DNA from: a virus
Lineage: Duplodnaviria > Heunggongvirae > Uroviricota > Caudoviricetes
Virus record (IMG/VR): IMGVR_UViG_2657244943_000008
Location: 1 to 10,588 of that record
Direction: 5' to 3' (one strand)
DNA length: 10,588 nucleotides
Of this stretch, positions 1,355 through 10,588 are shown in pieces. Every line of letters begins with the position of its first letter. The first letter of the stretch is position 1. Below the pieces are notes generated by a model. It made no database searches. It had not been told where the DNA came from and saw only the letters and a list, made by a program, of their open reading frames with translations. The translations under genes were made by a program, and so were the position numbers.

Positions 1355-1681
1355 TTACTCCTTAGAGCCACCAAACTTGTTACCGATTACTCTCATTGCA
1401 GCCCCACGAATAGCATCAACACCGATCAGCCCCACCCCACCACCAATGGCAACAGATAGTGATTTAGGCCATCCGACATACTCAAGAGCGGATGCAAAAG
1501 TCAGCGTCAGAGCGCCACAGAGTAGAATTTCGAGTGTTTTTCGCTTCCAGCCGCCACCACCGCCAAAATAGGCAATACGTAAACCAGCCATAACAATCGA
1601 CATAATCACTGCGCCCAGCGGTGTGTCTCCACGCCACCAGCTCTGGACCAACTCCAGCCATGTATTTGGGTTATGAGGCAT
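1355..1681 (-). CDS. S: Holin, class I with three predicted TM segments (108 aa)
   Basis: Sits immediately upstream of the endolysin on the same strand. Three hydrophobic stretches (GAVIMSIVMAGLRIAYF, LEILLCGALTLTFASALEYV, LSVAIGGGVGLIGVDAI) and a charged C-terminus, the same architecture as lambda S. GAGGTGAGAG lies upstream of the ATG at 1681. Sequence similarity to lambda S is modest. Confidence 0.75.
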   Translation of the reverse strand: MPHNPNTWLELVQSWWRGDTPLGAVIMSIVMAGLRIAYFGGGGGWKRKTLEILLCGALTLTFASALEYVGWPKSLSVAIGGGVGLIGVDAIRGAAMRVIGNKFGGSKE

Positions 1682-1822
1682 TTGTAGTTATCTCTCACCT
1701 CGCTGATACAGCAGGTGCAAATTGAGGAAACATCATGTACCGCAAATCAGAAGCGGAAACGTCAAAGAAGCCGAGTCAATGGATAACTGCGGGATAGGCT
1801 AGGACCAAGGAATCCCCAGACC

Positions 1823-1855
1823 CAGAAACGACAAAACCCGCTCGATGGCGGGTTT
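1823..1855 (-). terminator. Intrinsic-terminator-like hairpin oriented on the minus strand (possible tR'-like late-operon terminator)
   Basis: Plus strand shows AAACCCG-ctcgatgg-CGGGTTT at 1834-1855. On the minus strand the stem is followed by TTTTGTCGTTTCT. It lies ~150 bp upstream of the holin start, at the boundary between ~50% GC phage DNA and the AT-rich cassette. Confidence 0.45.
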
Positions 1856-1900
1856 AAGCTGTGTGGCGAAGTAAGCACACTTAACAGATTACGATATTTT

Positions 1901-1929
1901 TTGCGTACGCGTTAGTGTTTTGATAGAAT
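1901..1929 (+). promoter_or_regulatory. Sigma70-like promoter for the two-gene cassette (TTGCGT, 17 bp spacer, TG-n-TAGAAT extended -10)
   Basis: -35 TTGCGT at 1901-1906, 17-bp spacer, TG at 1921-1922, -10 TAGAAT at 1924-1929. This would give a ~37-nt leader to the ATG at 1973, which has GGGA 6 nt upstream. Motif match only, no experimental support. Confidence 0.45.
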
Positions 1930-1972
1930 TTTCAGCCACATAAAAATTCATTCTTATAATTCGGGATATATA

Positions 1973-3148
1973 ATGGATATAACTTGTTTAGAATGTGGCA
2001 ATGTTCTTGACGACCCAACTGTAGCTTGCGATAAATGCGGTGCCACGCCTCATGTTGTAGTGCTGGGCAAACAATCGTACTTTCCTATTGGTGCTGTAAC
2101 AGCAAATCTTGAAAAAAATGATTCAAGAGCATTTGATTATCGATTAGGTGAAGTTTGGGATCTAAAAAATGAAGTCACATCTGAATTCATAACCAGAATT
2201 GAGAAAAAATTTAGCCGAAAAAACAAATTTCATAACTTCCTAGACTCAGATCACAACCCTTCATCCATTCCTACGATCCTAAAAAAATACATTAATAAAA
2301 ATAATGAATTCATTGATTTATCTAGAGCTATAATAGAGAAGCTTAAACATAATGCTAATAACGAATCGAGAGTTGCCCAACTTCAGGGGGGGAGCGTTGT
2401 TTTCATCCACTATAAGTCTACCGAACCAGAGGATTTGGGGAAACTTCTAATCGTAATGGTTGATAAACAAAGCGCCTATGACTTTGATTCGGATAAGTTG
2501 ACCCCAACAAGATTAAATCCAATTAATACCGATGCCTTACGGCAGGCTGCGATGTTCGATTTAACTTTATTCGAAGCCAGTTATCCAGAAAACAAGGGTG
2601 ACTCATATGTACATTTCTTGCAAGGTAAATCTAAAAGCGATTTTTTCAAAGACTCATTAGGTTGCCGACATGATTCGGACAATAAAAGAAGCATTCAGCA
2701 ATTATTCAGTGCTATAGATATTTTTGCTAGTAAAAACTCACTCGGTCGTGTACTGCGTGATACTATTGACAATGAAGTTAAATCCTTACTGGAAAAAAAA
2801 TCAAAAGATAAACACGGAAATAAGTCCGTTAAGATAGAGGATATTTCAAAAATAATTGACTCATGCCTGACTGATTCACACAAATGTAAGGGAACGTTTG
2901 TCGATTTTGTTAATCTTAATGGTTTCCAGATTGACCCTCAATTTGAACCAACTCCTAAAGCAGCTGAAAGCGCGCTTACAATTGAAGTGGCAGATAACGA
3001 CAATAATTTTAAGTTGAAAATAATGCGTGGAGCTATTGGAGACGAAAAGTCAAATAAGCCTGTAATTCTCACTGACAACAAATGCGAAATTGTGATAAAA
3101 TTGAGTCAGGCAAATTATGATGAACTCAAAAGATATAGAGACAGCTAA
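1973..3148 (+). CDS. Zinc-ribbon plus NdpA/YejK-like nucleoid-associated-domain protein (391 aa); cassette gene 1
   Basis: N-terminal CxxC…CxxC (CLECGN…CDKCG). The central and C-terminal region aligns by eye to E. coli YejK/NdpA as I recall it: GGSVVFIHYKS…LLIVMVDKQ versus GGIVLFCHYRY…LLVAVLNN, and YVHFLQGKSKSDFFKDSLG versus [22 protein letters not shown]. About 30% GC against ~50% in flanking phage genes. Confidence 0.6.
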   Translation: MDITCLECGNVLDDPTVACDKCGATPHVVVLGKQSYFPIGAVTANLEKNDSRAFDYRLGEVWDLKNEVTSEFITRIEKKFSRKNKFHNFLDSDHNPSSIPTILKKYINKNNEFIDLSRAIIEKLKHNANNESRVAQLQGGSVVFIHYKSTEPEDLGKLLIVMVDKQSAYDFDSDKLTPTRLNPINTDALRQAAMFDLTLFEASYPENKGDSYVHFLQGKSKSDFFKDSLGCRHDSDNKRSIQQLFSAIDIFASKNSLGRVLRDTIDNEVKSLLEKKSKDKHGNKSVKIEDISKIIDSCLTDSHKCKGTFVDFVNLNGFQIDPQFEPTPKAAESALTIEVADNDNNFKLKIMRGAIGDEKSNKPVILTDNKCEIVIKLSQANYDELKRYRDS

Positions 3149-3150
3149 TA

Positions 3151-4365
3151 ATGACAATTGCTGATGACTTATCAAGATTAGCGCAGATTATTAACGGAGC
3201 CTCAAGCAGAGTTGAGGGCTACTACACTGTCATAACTCTTGAAGAAAGCATTGTTATTGTAAATAGTTCTGAAATAATTAGACTGTTACAATCTATAGGT
3301 TATAAAAAGGCAACAACCTGCATCGAAAATAATGAAATTTGGCTAGATCGCCAAGCTTCATCTTGGGATGATGCTATAATTTATGAGAATGTTGAGTCTT
3401 TTTGGTCTAGAGTAAACACCCAAAACGCTCTTCCGAAAAATTATATCATCGGAACGCCGTTAATACTCCCTACTTCTAAGAATGAAAGCATCGAAAAAAT
3501 CCATATTTTCTTTATGTGGAAAGATATCCTTTCATTAATTTCTGATCATCATAACAGTGACTGCTCTGTCTTATTTTTCACCAATGAAGACAAAAGTTAT
3601 ACAGTCGAACTCACGCATTTTTTACAATATAGCGAGATTAATCGCTTATCGAACTCGTCTCTTAAATATGAAATTATAAAGGAGCTTCTCGACACAATAA
3701 AAATCAATGATTTACACAAAAGCGAGCGCAAGCTCGTTATACGCTCAGCCATAAACGAAGTATTTAAAGCAAATGGTACGTTCAATTTCTTTGACTTGCT
3801 TAACTCTACTGAACTCGTCAGGAAAAAATATGATGAACTATATGAGATTTACACAAAGAGGTTTTCTGTAAATAAAATTCTTAACGAACTCGATGAGAAA
3901 AATCTTGAGTTCACGAGTAAAATTAACGAATTCATATCATCTAATCAGACAAAAGCATTGACTATTCCCGGTGCATTAATAGCAGCTGGTGGCTTAGTGA
4001 AGGCTAATGAAACAACCGAAGCAATATTGATTATCGCAGGACTTTGGATGATAAAAAAAGTCAATTACATTTCTATTGAGATATTCAATGAAACATTCGA
4101 CAACTTACGTTCTCGAGTGGAGTCCGCTTTCGATAAGTATTTAAAGTTTGAAGAAAATAAAGAAATCAAAGATAATGCAGATAGTATTAAGAGTAGCATT
4201 ACAGGTTTGATTGATAAAGCTAAAAAAAGGATGAGAACTGTTAAATATCTCGCATCAGCCATGTTTTATGGAGGCCTTATTTACGTTGGATATAAACAGT
4301 TCCCAGTCTTTTTTGAAAAATCGGCAGTAAATCTATTTTATTTTTTATGCCATACTATAAGCTAA
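3151..4365 (+). CDS. Hypothetical protein with C-terminal hydrophobic (membrane-anchoring) segments (404 aa); cassette gene 2
   Basis: ATG at 3151 is 2 nt after the gene-1 TAA (TAATAATG), indicating translational coupling. The N-terminal ~260 aa are soluble with no motif I recognise. The C-terminal part has hydrophobic stretches ALTIPGALIAAGGLV, AILIIAGLWMI and VKYLASAMFYGGLIYVGY. Its 3' end overlaps the Q gene convergently by 21 nt. AT-rich. Confidence 0.6.
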   Translation: MTIADDLSRLAQIINGASSRVEGYYTVITLEESIVIVNSSEIIRLLQSIGYKKATTCIENNEIWLDRQASSWDDAIIYENVESFWSRVNTQNALPKNYIIGTPLILPTSKNESIEKIHIFFMWKDILSLISDHHNSDCSVLFFTNEDKSYTVELTHFLQYSEINRLSNSSLKYEIIKELLDTIKINDLHKSERKLVIRSAINEVFKANGTFNFFDLLNSTELVRKKYDELYEIYTKRFSVNKILNELDEKNLEFTSKINEFISSNQTKALTIPGALIAAGGLVKANETTEAILIIAGLWMIKKVNYISIEIFNETFDNLRSRVESAFDKYLKFEENKEIKDNADSIKSSITGLIDKAKKRMRTVKYLASAMFYGGLIYVGYKQFPVFFEKSAVNLFYFLCHTIS

Positions 4366-4701
4366 CATTGCTAAACAGCCATCAACAAACCCCATTGCAG
4401 TTTGCAGTTCCTTCCTAATTGTGCCATCAGAGCATTTTCTCTTCTTCGCAATAGTGCGTAATGAGATACCGATAACAAAGTGGGCGATGATGAGCTCATA
4501 TTCATCTGGTTTATACCTTCTCAACCGAGCCACACAACTGTCTATCATGATGCCTTCGTCATCATCACACTGAATCCGTGACTTTTTGCCATGAGGTAAA
4601 AGTCCCTTGAAACCAGCCGCTATCGGCTGCCAGTCCACTCCGCTATTGTCTGAAGCAGCCCAAGCTCCCCAACGATCCATTACTTCATACATATCACGCA
4701 T
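4345..4701 (-). CDS. Q: Late-gene antiterminator Q, short QuuD-like family (118 aa from the ATG at 4701)
   Basis: Translation [35 protein letters not shown]…CDDD… resembles DLP12 QuuD as I recall it ([35 protein letters not shown]…CDDD…). The track ORF begins at a TTG at 4716; the ATG at 4701 with GGAGAAAG upstream is the more likely start. Confidence 0.8.
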   Translation of the reverse strand: [118 protein letters not shown]

Positions 4702-4887
4702 CAACTTTCTCCACAAAATCAGGCCAGCACACCAATTGCCAGCGCACGATCGATAAGACCAGGGACAATTACTGACTCTTGCCGGTGAGCCTGACGGAAA
4801 ACTCCGCGCAGCAGGTCATTAATATCGTTCTTAATTAACTGATTATTTATCTCATCACTGAATATCTTTATATAGTGAGGACTTATT

Positions 4888-5712
4888 ATGTCTCAGAACT
4901 TAGACGCAACCGCAATTAATCAAATCCATGCCCTTATTTCTGCTCAGGGTGTTAATGAAATTATCAGTAAGATTGGTGCCGACGCAGTGGCATTACCTGA
5001 AAATTTCCGCATTCATGATCTGGAAAAATTTAATTTAAATCGCTTCCGTTTCCGTGGCGCGCTTTCCACTGCCTGCATCGATGACTTTATCCGTTATTCT
5101 AAAGATCTTGCAGATGAAGGCACCCGCTGCTTTATCGATGCCGATAATATGCGTGCCGTCAGTGTTCTTAACCTGGGTACTATTGATGAACCAGGTCACG
5201 CAGATAATACCGCCACTCTCAAACTGAAAAAGACAGCACCGTTCTCTGCACTGTTGTCTGTTAACGGCGAGCGTAACTCCCAGAAGTCACTGGCAGAATG
5301 GATTGAAGACTGGGCCGACTACCTTGTGGGCTTTGATGCTAATGGTGACGCCATTCAGGCAACAAAAGCGGCTGCGGCAGTCCGTAAAATCACAATTGAA
5401 GCGAACCAGACTGCTGATTTTGAAGACAATGACTTCAGCGGCAAACGCTCCCTGATGGAGTCTGTCGAAGCGAAGACCAAAGACATTATGCCAGTGGCAT
5501 TTGAATTTAAATGCGTTCCGTTTGAAGGTCTGAAAGAACGTTCTTTTAAATTACGCCTCAGCATTATCACTGGCGATCGTCCTGTACTTGTTCTGCGCAT
5601 TATTCAGCTGGAGGCTGTGCAGGAAGAAATGGCTAACGAATTTCGCGATCTGCTTGTTGAGAAATTCAAAGACAGCAAAGTAGAAACCTTTATTGGTACT
5701 TTCACCGCCTGA
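4888..5712 (+). CDS. yfdQ: DUF2303-family prophage protein, YfdQ-like (274 aa)
   Basis: Length and N-terminus ([14 protein letters not shown]…) match my recollection of E. coli CPS-53 YfdQ. It is followed by a YfdR-like HD-domain gene, as in CPS-53. GAGG RBS 8 nt upstream. Function unknown. Confidence 0.6.
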
Positions 5713-5724
5713 TTTGATTACTGC

Positions 5725-5747
5725 AAATGCCCCTGCGGGGGCATTTA
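5725..5747 (+). terminator. Hairpin AAATGCCCC-tgc-GGGGCATTT followed by AT, between the yfdQ-like and yfdR-like genes
   Basis: 9-bp perfect inverted repeat with a 3-nt loop, 13 nt after the yfdQ-like stop. The U-tract is short (ATTTAT), so it may be a partial terminator or attenuator. Confidence 0.4.
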
Positions 5748-5840
5748 TGGAAACGTAATTAACTCAATAATCGCCGGATGGTGAGGGCTTCCTTTTACCA
5801 GAATTCAGTGCGGTGCAGCGCAAATAACGTGGAGAACAAA

Positions 5841-6377
5841 ATGTCATTTATTAAAACTTTTTCTGGGAAGCATTTTTATTATGACAGGATAAATAAAGAC
5901 GACATCGTTATTAACGATATCGCGGTTTCCCTTTCAAATATCTGTCGCTTTGCAGGACATCTTTCACACTTCTACAGCGTCGCCCAACATGCGGTGCTTT
6001 GCAGCCAGTTGGTGCCGCAGGAATTTGCTTTTGAAGCGTTAATGCATGATGCAACAGAAGCATATTGCCAGGATATCCCCGCACCACTGAAACAACTTCT
6101 TCCTGACTATAAACGGATGGAAGAAAAAATAGACGCCGTAATCCGTGAGAAATACGGGTTACCTCCTGTTATGAGCACGCCTGTGAAATATGCCGATCTC
6201 ATTATGTTGGCAACCGAGCGTCGCGATCTCGGGCTTGATGATGGCTCTTTCTGGCCTGTGCTGGAAGGTATCCCGGCAACAGATATGTTCAAAGTTATTC
6301 CACTGGCACCGGGCCATGCCTACGGGATGTTTTTGGCACGCTTTAAAGAGTTACATACGATACATAAACAATCCTGA
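5841..6377 (+). CDS. yfdR: HD-domain phosphohydrolase, YfdR-like 5'-deoxynucleotidase (178 aa from the ATG at 5841)
   Basis: H…HD motif (HLSHFYSVAQHAVL…ALMHDATEAY) typical of the HD superfamily. The ATG at 5841 has GGAG 8 nt upstream and gives 178 aa, matching the YfdR length I recall. The track ORF starts earlier at 5778 without an RBS. Confidence 0.7.
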   Translation: MSFIKTFSGKHFYYDRINKDDIVINDIAVSLSNICRFAGHLSHFYSVAQHAVLCSQLVPQEFAFEALMHDATEAYCQDIPAPLKQLLPDYKRMEEKIDAVIREKYGLPPVMSTPVKYADLIMLATERRDLGLDDGSFWPVLEGIPATDMFKVIPLAPGHAYGMFLARFKELHTIHKQS

Positions 6378-6432
6378 CAGTGAAATTAACCAGTGAAATA
6401 GTTTTGTAGCAAAAGAAATGAGGTTATCAAAA

Positions 6433-6678
6433 ATGCTTCAAATGCTGACACTTGAAGAATGGGCTTCTGAAAAATACAGAAGTAATCCTCCAAGTGTGTC
6501 CACATTGCGTCGTTATGCTAAGCAGAATTTATTTTGTCCACCGGCCATGAAACAAGGCCGGTTATGGCGAGTGCGTGAGGACGCCGAGTTAGTTGGAGAG
6601 CTGGTAACACCAGTAATTAAGAAAAATGACTCATTACTTTTGCAACGGATTTTGAGTGATGGCAGCCAGACCGCGTAA
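6433..6678 (+). CDS. xis: Excisionase, lambda Xis-like (81 aa from the ATG at 6433)
   Basis: MLQMLTLEEWASEKYRSNPPSVSTLRRYAKQNLFCPPAMKQGRLWRV parallels lambda Xis (…LTLQEW…RSLETVRRW…FPPPVKDGREY…). GAGG lies 9 nt upstream of the ATG at 6433; the alternative start at 6418 has no RBS. Overlaps the int start by 20 nt as in lambda. Confidence 0.75.
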   Translation: MLQMLTLEEWASEKYRSNPPSVSTLRRYAKQNLFCPPAMKQGRLWRVREDAELVGELVTPVIKKNDSLLLQRILSDGSQTA

Positions 6679-7786
6679 AAATAATGTTTCGGTCCCTAAC
6701 TTATATCCGCTTTATAGTAGGAAAGTAAATAAAGTCTATTGGCGGTATAAGCATCCAGTAACAGGGAAATTTCATGCGCTAGGAACGAACGAAACCGAAG
6801 CCATCGCTATTGCCACTGAAGCCAATACGCGACTGGCTGAACAAAGAACTCGGCAGATTCTGGCCATCAGTGACAGGATAGCAACCAGCAAAGGGAAAGC
6901 AATCACAACGTCAACCTGGTTAGATCGCTACCAAGCGATCCAGGATGACCGACTGAAAAGTGGTGATATAAGACTCAACACTTATAAGCAGAAAGCCAAA
7001 CCAGTATCCTTACTTAGGGAACGAGTAGGAATGAAGTTGATCTCAGCCGTTGATGTCAGAGATATAGCACAATTGCTTGACGAGTATATCGCTGCCGGGC
7101 AGCCGAGAATGGCGCAAGTCGTAAGGTCTGTATTGATCGATGTATTTAAGGAAGCACAGCATTATGGCGAAGTTCCGCCAGGGTATAACCCTGCTCTTGC
7201 GACGAAGCAACCCAGACGGAAAATCACCCGTCAACGCCTCAGCCTCGAAGAATGGAAAAAAATCTTCGATATCGCAGATGCCAGTCATCGTTACATGGGA
7301 AATGCCATGCTCCTAGCATTGGTCACTGGACAGCGTTTGGGGGACATATCTAAAATGAAATTCAGCGATATTTGGGATGACCATCTACATGTCGAACAGG
7401 AAAAGACTGGAAGCAAAATCGCAATTCCTCTTTCTCTTCGCCTCAATACGATTAACTGGAGTTTACGCGATATAATAGCCCGCTGCCGTGACTATGCAGT
7501 CAGTCCATACCTAGTGCATTTTTTCCGTTCAACTTCACAAGCAGAACGTGGGGCACAGGTTAAATCCAATACATTGACGATGAACTTTAGCAAAGCGCGA
7601 GACTTGGCCGGAATTGATTGGGGTGATGGAACTCCAGCAACTTTCCATGAACAAAGATCTTTATCTGAGCGCCTTTATAGGGAACAAGGGATTGATACGC
7701 AAAAACTACTCGGACATAAATCTCCTAATCAGACAGCTAGATATCATGATGATCGTGGAAAAGATTGGGTAACTCTAGCAATTTGA
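6659..7786 (+). CDS. int: Tyrosine integrase, lambda Int family (375 aa from the ATG at 6659)
   Basis: Full-length similarity to lambda Int as I recall it, including the catalytic signature: R in LALVTGQRLGD, H-x-x-R in FHEQRSLSERLY, and H plus Y in LLGHKSPNQTARYHDDRG. The track start at 6656 is a GTG; the adjacent ATG at 6659 is more likely. Confidence 0.92.
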   Translation: MAARPRKNNVSVPNLYPLYSRKVNKVYWRYKHPVTGKFHALGTNETEAIAIATEANTRLAEQRTRQILAISDRIATSKGKAITTSTWLDRYQAIQDDRLKSGDIRLNTYKQKAKPVSLLRERVGMKLISAVDVRDIAQLLDEYIAAGQPRMAQVVRSVLIDVFKEAQHYGEVPPGYNPALATKQPRRKITRQRLSLEEWKKIFDIADASHRYMGNAMLLALVTGQRLGDISKMKFSDIWDDHLHVEQEKTGSKIAIPLSLRLNTINWSLRDIIARCRDYAVSPYLVHFFRSTSQAERGAQVKSNTLTMNFSKARDLAGIDWGDGTPATFHEQRSLSERLYREQGIDTQKLLGHKSPNQTARYHDDRGKDWVTLAI

Positions 7787-7920: not shown

Positions 7921-8886
7921 TCATTTCTTAAATTTAAGAATTTCTTTTAAGGCTTCTACTATATTTTTATCCCCATCCATGCTAATTTTCTCCTTCTCAA
8001 GAGAAACCGTAGTCTGCCCTTTTTCAAGAACAAAATTACGTTCTGTAGCCATGAGATTTTTAATAACCTCACCCATTAAGTCTTCGTTTCTAATGCCCTT
8101 AAGAAACTTTATCGCCAAAACTTTGGAATCGATATTGGTAAGCTCATTTTGAAAATACTTGACCTCATCAAAACCATTTTTGTACAACTTCAAGAAGAAA
8201 TAAGCAAATAGTTCAACGACAATTACAAATGATAATTTGGGGGCCATGTGAAGTATATATTCAAGCTTATCATTTGTGTTAATAGCATTTGTAACTGAAT
8301 ATCCAAGGTAAAGTATCCCACCAAAAGCAATAAATGCACCTAAAACCAGATTAACCCCACCACGTCTATTTAATCTATTTATTTCATTTTCTAAACGATA
8401 TACAATATCATTATAGTGTTTACTAATTTCTATTTGATTTCTAAACGAATTTATATCATTTTTCAAACTTAAATCTGCAGCCAAGAGAGTATTGCCTACA
8501 ATCTTTTTTTTAGCATTATCGATCAACTCTTGCCTTTCTTTTGATGTGAGTAAAACACCATTTAAATCTTTCGAATCATTTGTAACTAGTTGATTAAACT
8601 CTTGCTTTAAGGAGTCTAATTCTGACTTTAACTCTTCATATGAGTTAACATTCTTGTTTTTACTTTCACCTATTCCTTTATTAACATAATTTAATAAAAA
8701 TGCTGCCATAAAAGTTAAAATCAGAGTTGCAATAAAGAAACTATTTTCATCTTGAAGTATTTTAGCAACAGTGGAAAAATAACTTACGAGAAGAGGCTGA
8801 GCATTATAAAGCCCCATTCCTAACAAAACTGCAATTGCCGTACCTAAAACGAACCTTACTTCTTGTCTTTTTAGTAACCTATTCAT
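7921..8886 (-). CDS. Four-TM membrane protein with central coiled-coil and C-terminal soluble region (321 aa); candidate membrane effector
   Basis: Hydrophobic segments VRFVLGTAIAVLLGMGLY, FFIATLILTFMAAFLLNYV, VNLVLGAFIAFGGILYLGY and LSFVIVVELFAYFFLKLY. The linker between TM2 and TM3 (ELKSELDSLKQEFNQL…RLENEINRLNRR) is heptad-like. About 28% GC. Weak GGTG RBS. No confident family assignment. Confidence 0.6.
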   Translation of the reverse strand: MNRLLKRQEVRFVLGTAIAVLLGMGLYNAQPLLVSYFSTVAKILQDENSFFIATLILTFMAAFLLNYVNKGIGESKNKNVNSYEELKSELDSLKQEFNQLVTNDSKDLNGVLLTSKERQELIDNAKKKIVGNTLLAADLSLKNDINSFRNQIEISKHYNDIVYRLENEINRLNRRGGVNLVLGAFIAFGGILYLGYSVTNAINTNDKLEYILHMAPKLSFVIVVELFAYFFLKLYKNGFDEVKYFQNELTNIDSKVLAIKFLKGIRNEDLMGEVIKNLMATERNFVLEKGQTTVSLEKEKISMDGDKNIVEALKEILKFKK

Positions 8887-9448: not shown

Positions 9449-10588
9449 CTAAAATACAACTTGCTTCCTTAGTAAATCACCTCTAGCATTTGAGTAATAT
9501 TCAGTCGAATTGCCAGTAACTTCCCGGAGTACTTCTGTTACAAGGTTATTTAGTATTCCCGTAAGTTTAAGAAACTCTCCATATGAATTAGGTTTCTCAA
9601 ATATCTTTCTGGTACCGTTCGGCACATCGAGCTGCATTGCAGCATCATGATCCTGGGCTAAGTGATTTAGCCAGCGGTGAGTCTCAACAAGTACAGCAAG
9701 TTCATAGTATGTACTATGACGGAGATTATTAGCATCTGCATGGTACATTAGTGAAGCAATATCATAGCTGCTTAGATCAATACTCGAACCTTCGTCTCCA
9801 CTGTCTGCTTTCAGGGTTTTGAGCATGCGAATTGATTTTCTTAATCCACCATTGCATTGATCGCATTTGTCTTTGATACGTTGCATGTGGAGGAACGGTT
9901 CATTGTAGATACGCTCTCGTTTGTTTTTATCAATTATGGTAACTCCACGATGTTCTTCTTTTTTTGTGAGTTGGTACTCTTTCGTATCCCACCATATGCC
10001 TGGCACTACATCAACTTCTCTTTGAAGACTCCCCCCCGTTATTCTCAAGGACTTGGCGTTATTATCGTCAACCTGAGCAGCAGGAAATGTCATTTTTAGA
10101 GCATCTCGAGCTGCACGCCTAAGTTCAATGATGACGTCTCGGCCATCTTTCTCAGCTGCACTATAGCTGCCAACTCCACCGCTATCATACATAAGCATCT
10201 GAGTATCAATAATTAAAAGATCTACATCACTGAAACCTTTGATATGGATATCTAGGGGAACAGAACCTTGTACCCGAAAATCTAGGTTTAGGTCTAATTT
10301 CTTAGTCAGCTGATTTTCAATACGATACGCGGTTTCGAATGAGATCTCTGTATAGCGGGGGTCAACTGGTTGCATCGCACCAATGACATACCGGATAGCT
10401 GAATCGTCTCTTCCTCTAGACTCCCAACTTTCATTAAGCTCAAGAGCATCTTCAAGCAATGCATATTTTTCAAGGCCATCATATCTTTGATTACTCATTG
10501 ATTCTGTGGCTACTCGCAACTGATCATATGTCCCTTTACGACGTGACTTCATGCGTTCAATACGCGAACTATATGATGAATTAGACAT
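9449..10588 (-). CDS. Pol-beta-superfamily nucleotidyltransferase with cGAS/DncV-like (CD-NTase/SMODS-like) active-site motifs (at least 379 aa; start at the window edge)
   Basis: GS…D-x-D motif (RVQGSVPLDIHIKGFSDVDLLII) and a downstream third acidic motif REVDVVPG, resembling the [DE]hDhhP of OAS/cGAS/DncV-type enzymes. About 42-48% GC. The ATG coincides with the last base of the window, so the true N-terminus may lie further upstream. Confidence 0.55.
   Translation of the reverse strand: MSNSSYSSRIERMKSRRKGTYDQLRVATESMSNQRYDGLEKYALLEDALELNESWESRGRDDSAIRYVIGAMQPVDPRYTEISFETAYRIENQLTKKLDLNLDFRVQGSVPLDIHIKGFSDVDLLIIDTQMLMYDSGGVGSYSAAEKDGRDVIIELRRAARDALKMTFPAAQVDDNNAKSLRITGGSLQREVDVVPGIWWDTKEYQLTKKEEHRGVTIIDKNKRERIYNEPFLHMQRIKDKCDQCNGGLRKSIRMLKTLKADSGDEGSSIDLSSYDIASLMYHADANNLRHSTYYELAVLVETHRWLNHLAQDHDAAMQLDVPNGTRKIFEKPNSYGEFLKLTGILNNLVTEVLREVTGNSTEYYSNARGDLLRKQVVF

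Follow-up and report, generated by a model that had tools for sequence, protein, structure and literature searches.

The window, by which we mean the whole stretch of DNA analyzed here (10,588 nucleotides), carries a cassette of two adjacent genes between the antiterminator gene Q and the holin gene of a lambdoid prophage, antisense to the late operon (Table 1). The first gene is an open reading frame (ORF) at exactly positions 1973 to 3148 of the plus strand, which starts with ATG and encodes 391 amino acids, and its product is identical (100%) to WP_000355468.1, the DS-1A protein. The gene for DS-1B follows downstream after an intergenic gap of 2 nt, and its last 21 nt (4345 to 4365) are shared with the 3′ end of Q. 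The DS-1 cassette has a GC content of 34.6%, compared with 51.8% and 44.7% in its flanks, which agrees with the AT-rich prophage moron described in an earlier sequence-only reading of this DNA.

Table 1. Positions of the DS-1 cassette, its domains, and neighboring features in the window
Feature	Position	Strand	Evidence
Lambda-family holin	1355..1681	-	Pfam PF05106, E=5.7e-25
Terminator-like hairpin, AAACCCGC...GCGGGTTT, then T-rich tail	1855-1834	-	Terminator scan; precedes holin
Candidate sigma-70 promoter, TTGATA-16-AAAAAT	1920..1947	+	9/12 consensus match; weak
DS-1A (probable Pag2A-type sensor), zinc ribbon plus NA37/YejK-like nucleoid-associated protein	1973..3148	+	ORF; NCBIfam NF053868; identity to WP_000355468.1
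C4 zinc-ribbon core of DS-1A, Cys5, Cys8, Cys19, Cys22 (C-x2-C-x10-C-x2-C)	1985..2038	+	Cysteine conservation
NA37 (YejK/NdpA-like) domain of DS-1A, residues 64-376	2162..3100	+	PF04245; Foldseek and HMM versus 9be2
DS-1B (probable Pag2B-type effector), 404 aa	3151..4365	+	NF053869; near-identity to WP_000150292.1
Antiterminator Q, convergent with DS-1B	4345..4716	-	Pfam PF06530, E=4.4e-47
321-aa ORF, 28-31% GC, coiled coil and hydrophobic segments	7921-8886	-	No family match
CBASS cyclase, runs past window end	9449-10588	-	PADLOC PDLC00772, E=6e-137

The prophage and its cargo site

Positions 1700 to 4400 of the window, queried as a 2.7-kb segment, matched E. coli ARS-C301 at 100% identity, and the DS-1 cassette was found at an identity of at least 99% in 106 of 5,426 complete E. 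coli genomes. The element is an e14-like defective prophage at icd, with intE, xisE, pinE, and mcrA annotated there. An ORF on the minus strand (528 to 878), annotated by PGAP as two partial pseudogenes, fuses the N-terminus of an Rz-like lysis protein to the C-terminal end of the major capsid protein; everything between the lysis and head genes has been deleted, and the prophage is therefore defective. At positions 4345 to 7786, a DUF2303/YfdQ gene, an HD hydrolase gene, xisE, and intE come immediately after Q. The absence of repressor, replication, and nin genes between Q and intE in this interval also points to an e14-like element at icd that has been heavily deleted.

A Yersinia homologue of the cassette sits at the equivalent Q/holin site of another lambdoid prophage, and a prophage of E. 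coli strain 190 (L010), whose holin region is 94% identical to that of the window, carries another cargo of three plus-strand genes at this site. The Q/holin site thus acts as a hotspot for variable cargo. The alternative L010 cargo (4728 to 6455), encoding a TIGR04255-family protein and two hypothetical proteins, may be another defense candidate. Because the homology of L010 to the window ends at approximately window position 1928, the position of the candidate sigma-70 promoter matches the left-hand boundary of the AT-rich cassette; the number of sigma-70-like matches in the region was not above the shuffled expectation. The strong hairpin on the minus strand resembles a late-operon tR′, and a late pR′-type promoter, if still present, could only be located within the DS-1 cassette or antisense to it. 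This cassette separates the hairpin from Q.

In the matching genome, a gene for a Cap15-family cyclic-dinucleotide receptor overlaps the 5′ end of the CBASS cyclase gene, and the CBASS operon lies between intE and icd, within the e14-like element. The ORF at 7921 to 8886 had no match in Pfam, PADLOC, or NCBIfam. Its cluster, WP_057108767.1, was listed as a “predicted novel defense gene” with a log-odds of 10.2 in the DefensePredictor study (DeWeirdt et al., Science 2026, PMC13092281), together with a weak AbiZ/DUF6161-like HHblits match (68% probability, 10% coverage). With DS-1 beside the CBASS operon and another predicted defense gene, the region thus forms a small defense island borne by the prophage. 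At the locus of a Serratia homologue (L009, 8623 to 9534), a gene with a BstA_C domain adjoins the DS-1-like pair. BstA is an abortive-infection protein of prophages, and the presence of the BstA_C gene beside this pair is consistent with a clustering of defense genes.

DS-1A and its partner DS-1B

The DS-1A/DS-1B pair is already known as a validated two-gene anti-phage system that was published in 2026. In the supplementary tables of the DefensePredictor study, the source of the NCBIfam models NF053868 and NF053869, DS-1 (working identifier D390) comprises WP_000355468.1 and WP_000150292.1 (PMC13092281). The window has the same gene order and an identical A protein, and its DS-1B shows 2 substitutions over the 399 printed residues of WP_000150292.1. 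Both equivalog models were passed, DS-1A scoring 451.4 bits against NF053868 (DS1_1_antiphage, cutoff 330) and DS-1B scoring 375.3 bits against NF053869 (DS1_2_antiphage, cutoff 315), and we found no material difference from the published system. At NCBI, the NF053868 family is named “nucleoid-associated anti-phage protein.” The earlier suggestion that the arrangement has no counterpart among characterized systems has accordingly to be withdrawn, the protein being identical to the validated DS-1A.

DS-1 was marked as defensive and replicated (Tables S6 to S8, PMC13092281), and the EOP entries covered here give −log10(EOP) values of 7.6 for Bas1, 2.7 for Bas26, 1.7 for Bas3, 1.7 for T3, 1.0 for T5, and 0.9 for T7. 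The main text of that study counts the “YejK nucleoid-associated domain” among the domains newly validated in defense, and its curated domain table gives only YejK (residues 42 to 382) for DS-1A. DS-1 is absent from the systems dissected there by mutation (PMC13092281). A “ZF” label in the legend of DefensePredictor Fig. 3 was considered as a possible reference to DS-1 and rejected, as the curated domain table assigns ZF to DS-23.

The NdpA/YejK assignment of DS-1A, originally made by eye, was confirmed by both profile and structure comparisons. Pfam PF04245 (NA37) matched DS-1A significantly (84.5 bits, gathering score 24.6; E=1.2e-23), and the alignment covered residues 64 to 376, corresponding to profile positions 27 to 318 of 325. 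A profile built from 33 DS-1A homologues matched the solved E. coli YejK structure 9be2 in the PDB (E=1.2e-19). The AlphaFold2 (AF2) model, made with an alignment of the 33 homologues, had a mean pLDDT of 85 and a pTM of 0.76, and in a Foldseek search of the PDB, it matched YejK 9be2 with E=1.1e-14 and a probability of 1.00, with no other match at E≤0.001. The global TM-score against 9be2 was low (0.42 to 0.48), suggesting that the domains are oriented differently in the modeled DS-1A.

DS-1A shares its fold and Pfam family with the chromosomal YejK/NdpA of E. coli (9be2). However, it is only 19% identical to YejK and falls below the YejK equivalog model NF001557, with 81.4 bits against a cutoff of 341, which agrees with its earlier description as a divergent NdpA copy. 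YejK also lacks the zinc ribbon of DS-1A and has no link to a DS-1B-type gene. By these comparisons, DS-1A belongs to a paralogous branch of the NA37 family and is not YejK proper. When 50,697 sequenced phage genomes were searched by tblastn, no close homologue turned up; the sole matches were NA37 genes of approximately 20% identity in Pseudomonas phages, F116 among them. Prophages and chromosomes, and not the isolated phages of this collection, are thus where the system is known to occur. PADLOC-DB v2.0.0 (2023) had no match for DS-1A or DS-1B, a null result that is uninformative on novelty because this library is older than both the DefensePredictor study and the 2026 preprint on PANGU systems (10.64898/2026.04.06.716658).

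DS-1A had previously been treated as a stand-alone gene, which overlooked its partner 2 nt downstream. A homologous partner of approximately 390 to 446 aa lies directly downstream of the A gene in all six diverse homologue contexts that we compared (Yersinia, Serratia, Pseudomonas, and three metagenomic contigs, one of them from freshwater), and these contexts include A proteins with the ribbon, with an acidic tail, and without any extension. The AF2 model of DS-1B (pLDDT 85.7), whose alignment used rows from protein searches with three locus-derived rows left out, shows an N-terminal alpha/beta domain (approximately residues 1 to 218) followed by long helices. Model and hydropathy together point to a hydrophobic helical hairpin at approximately residues 267 to 312 and a hydrophobic C-terminus at approximately residues 366 to 404; the hydrophobicity of these segments is moderate, with a best 19-aa Kyte-Doolittle mean of 1.56. 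Residues 1 to 218 are mildly acidic, with a net charge of −8. Searched against the PDB by Foldseek, the DS-1B model gave nothing significant (best E=0.53). CorA and alpha-pore-forming toxins were among its matches, from which, all being nonsignificant, we drew no inference.

The N-terminal zinc ribbon

The N-terminus of DS-1A, MDITCLECGNVLDDPTVACDKCGA, has cysteines at residues 5, 8, 19, and 22. Pfam zinc-ribbon models matched it weakly (PF13240, E=0.07; PF12773, E=0.16; PF13248, E=0.28), none of them reaching the gathering score, and the ribbon call therefore rests on the conservation of the cysteine pattern. Low profile scores are usual for motifs of approximately 20 aa. In a search of 5.8 billion proteins, C-x2-C-x10-C-x2-C was present in 48 of 88 full-length DS-1A homologues. 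The four cysteines are invariant in 32 of 32 distinct ribbon sequences, and the 10 spacer columns show 6 to 10 residue types each, a degree of conservation far beyond chance for the aligned cysteine pattern. The sequence-only reading, with its N-terminal CxxC…CxxC ribbon fused to an NdpA-like domain, thus withstands both of the refuting outcomes that it had named, as the NA37 match is significant and the cysteines are conserved. Ribbon-bearing homologues reach down to approximately 36% identity, and the possibility of a miscalled start that would leave the ribbon untranslated was rejected, as the amino acids of the ribbon are conserved over this range. The raw HHpred results in PMC13092281 include a line for NinF/Zn_Beta_Ribbon at DS-1A residues 3 to 26 (86% probability). 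In the AF2 model, the ribbon consists of short beta hairpins of modest confidence (pLDDT 60 to 67) and lies immediately before the NA37 domain's first beta strands.

Of the closest 50%-identity cluster representatives (39 at E≤1e-30), approximately 16 carry the ribbon, some with other spacings, and it was absent from all of the more distant YejK-like representatives found by the search, so that by its distribution in the homologues it is specific to the DS-1A clade. Within the clade, it is interchangeable with a Cys-free acidic tail or with nothing. Pseudomonas-type homologues have a Cys-free extension of approximately 30 aa instead of the ribbon, and homologues of approximately 362 aa have no N-terminal extension, the partner gene being kept in both cases. 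Because homologues that keep the partner may have a Cys-free acidic tail or nothing at this position, the ribbon appears to lie outside the core mechanism. Residues 1 to 28 of DS-1A are acidic (5 D/E versus 1 K), as are the ribbon-less tails (4 to 12 D/E versus 0 to 3 K/R). Being both acidic and dispensable, the ribbon is unlikely to bind DNA, and it is probably an accessory regulatory or protein-contact module rather than a DNA-binding element. Its possible roles may include tuning of DNA affinity, autoinhibition, and contact with the effector.

A proposed defense mechanism and its alternatives

PANGU systems consist of genes for nucleoid-associated proteins (NAPs) resembling YejK in two-gene operons with effectors, and in type II, the NAP Pag2A is paired with Pag2B, which has an acidic N-terminal “DNA-mimic” domain and a C-terminal transmembrane region (10.64898/2026.04.06.716658). 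One tested type II example, PANGU-Ecu, is from E. coli. Defense by type II requires both Pag2A and Pag2B, neither of which is toxic alone, and the outcome of infection under PANGU appears to be abortive. During T4 infection, Pag2A-GFP departs from the nucleoid; Pag2A binds the N-terminal domain of Pag2B with a KD of 19 nM, and T4 escapes through mutations in denA, which encodes EndoII (10.64898/2026.04.06.716658). The detailed PANGU mechanism comes mainly from type I in another species, where the sensor binds only long DNA and a sensor dead for DNA binding makes the system constitutively toxic. For type II, the preprint states that it is unknown how sensor binding activates the effector (10.64898/2026.04.06.716658).

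The ORF at 1973 to 3148 encodes DS-1A, probably the sensor half of DS-1, a system with the type II PANGU (Pag2A-Pag2B) architecture, with the effector DS-1B encoded downstream. Shared with type II are the YejK-like NAP gene and an effector gene within 40 bp (here 2 nt), and the layout of DS-1B may resemble that of Pag2B, with a mildly acidic N-terminal domain and predicted, moderately hydrophobic C-terminal helices. On the other hand, T4 and Bas34 are reported for PANGU, compared with Bas1, Bas26, Bas3, T3, T5, and T7 among the DS-1 entries covered here, and because these phage spectra differ, the trigger may not be identical. Type I PANGU (Pag1A and the GRel toxSAS Pag1B) has a sensor of the same family and the same proposed logic, in which the sensor, freed from degraded DNA, binds the DNA-mimic domain of the effector, but its effector Pag1B is an alarmone synthetase, whereas the DS-1B-type effector is predicted to be a membrane protein.

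By analogy with Pag1A and Pag2A, for which nonspecific DNA binding and association with the nucleoid are reported (10.64898/2026.04.06.716658), the YejK-like protein DS-1A would coat chromosomal DNA nonspecifically. An infecting phage that degrades the host genome would free DS-1A from the nucleoid, and the freed protein would then bind DS-1B, the putative membrane effector, at its acidic N-terminal “DNA-mimic” domain. The activated effector would halt the growth of the infected cell by abortive infection, and the lysogen population would thereby be protected.

The sequence-only reading had guessed that DS-1A senses incoming phage DNA or remodels the nucleoid, which comes near the published model of the class; in that model, however, the PANGU protein is bound to host DNA and signals when this DNA is destroyed (10.64898/2026.04.06.716658). 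A corresponding account, in which DS-1A is a stand-alone nucleoid protein that recognizes incoming or replicating phage DNA through its ribbon and NA37 domain, or remodels the nucleoid for the prophage, could draw on the YejK fold being a DNA-binding fold and on the distant NA37 genes (approximately 20% identity) of F116 and other Pseudomonas phages. Binding to nucleic acids is common among zinc ribbons, which also counts in its favor, but the ribbon of DS-1A is acidic (5 D/E versus 1 K in residues 1 to 28) and dispensable in homologues. Moreover, a homologous effector gene follows the A gene in six of six contexts, type II PANGU needs both genes, and the escape mutations hit a phage nuclease directed at host DNA rather than a feature of phage DNA (10.64898/2026.04.06.716658). 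We therefore consider this account very unlikely. It is unlikely, too, that the ribbon serves as an extra DNA or nucleoid tether strengthening the binding of the sensor to the chromosome: the invariance of its four cysteines in 32 distinct ribbons and its position immediately before the first NA37 beta strands would fit such a role, whereas residues 1 to 28 are net negative, the ribbon-less extensions are strongly acidic (4 to 12 D/E versus 0 to 3 K/R), the opposite of a DNA-binding surface, and the homologues of approximately 362 aa still keep the partner gene with no extension at all.

A classical toxin-antitoxin system, with DS-1B as a membrane toxin held by a labile antitoxin DS-1A and fired when the phage shuts off transcription, would share with DS-1 the two-gene operon, the tightly coupled ORFs, and a second product predicted to be membrane associated. 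Yet neither the PANGU sensor nor the effector is toxic alone, the sensor activates the effector rather than inhibiting it, and escape mutants map to a nuclease acting on host DNA (10.64898/2026.04.06.716658), all of which makes a toxin-antitoxin arrangement extremely unlikely here.

The discovery value of the locus is small, since an identical A protein with a near-identical B protein has already been shown to defend E. coli, the family has been named, and the class has been explained. Its practical value lies in the correct annotation of the pair as DS-1, probably an abortive-infection system of the type II PANGU kind. The conserved but dispensable ribbon offers mutagenesis a cheap and clearly delimited target in an experimental system that is already available. 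The ribbon is not discussed in the main text of either PMC13092281 or the PANGU preprint (10.64898/2026.04.06.716658), and the main text of the latter makes no mention of zinc, cysteine, ribbon, or prophages. As a tentative and somewhat doubtful proposal, the acidic C4 ribbon might provide a distinct regulatory input on the sensor, be it as an intramolecular DNA-mimic plug or as a zinc or redox latch governing exit from DNA or engagement of DS-1B, or might instead present a second sensor surface for a phage protein. If true, either role would help explain why ribbon-bearing, acidic-tailed, and bare N-termini coexist among close relatives, perhaps with different phage ranges.
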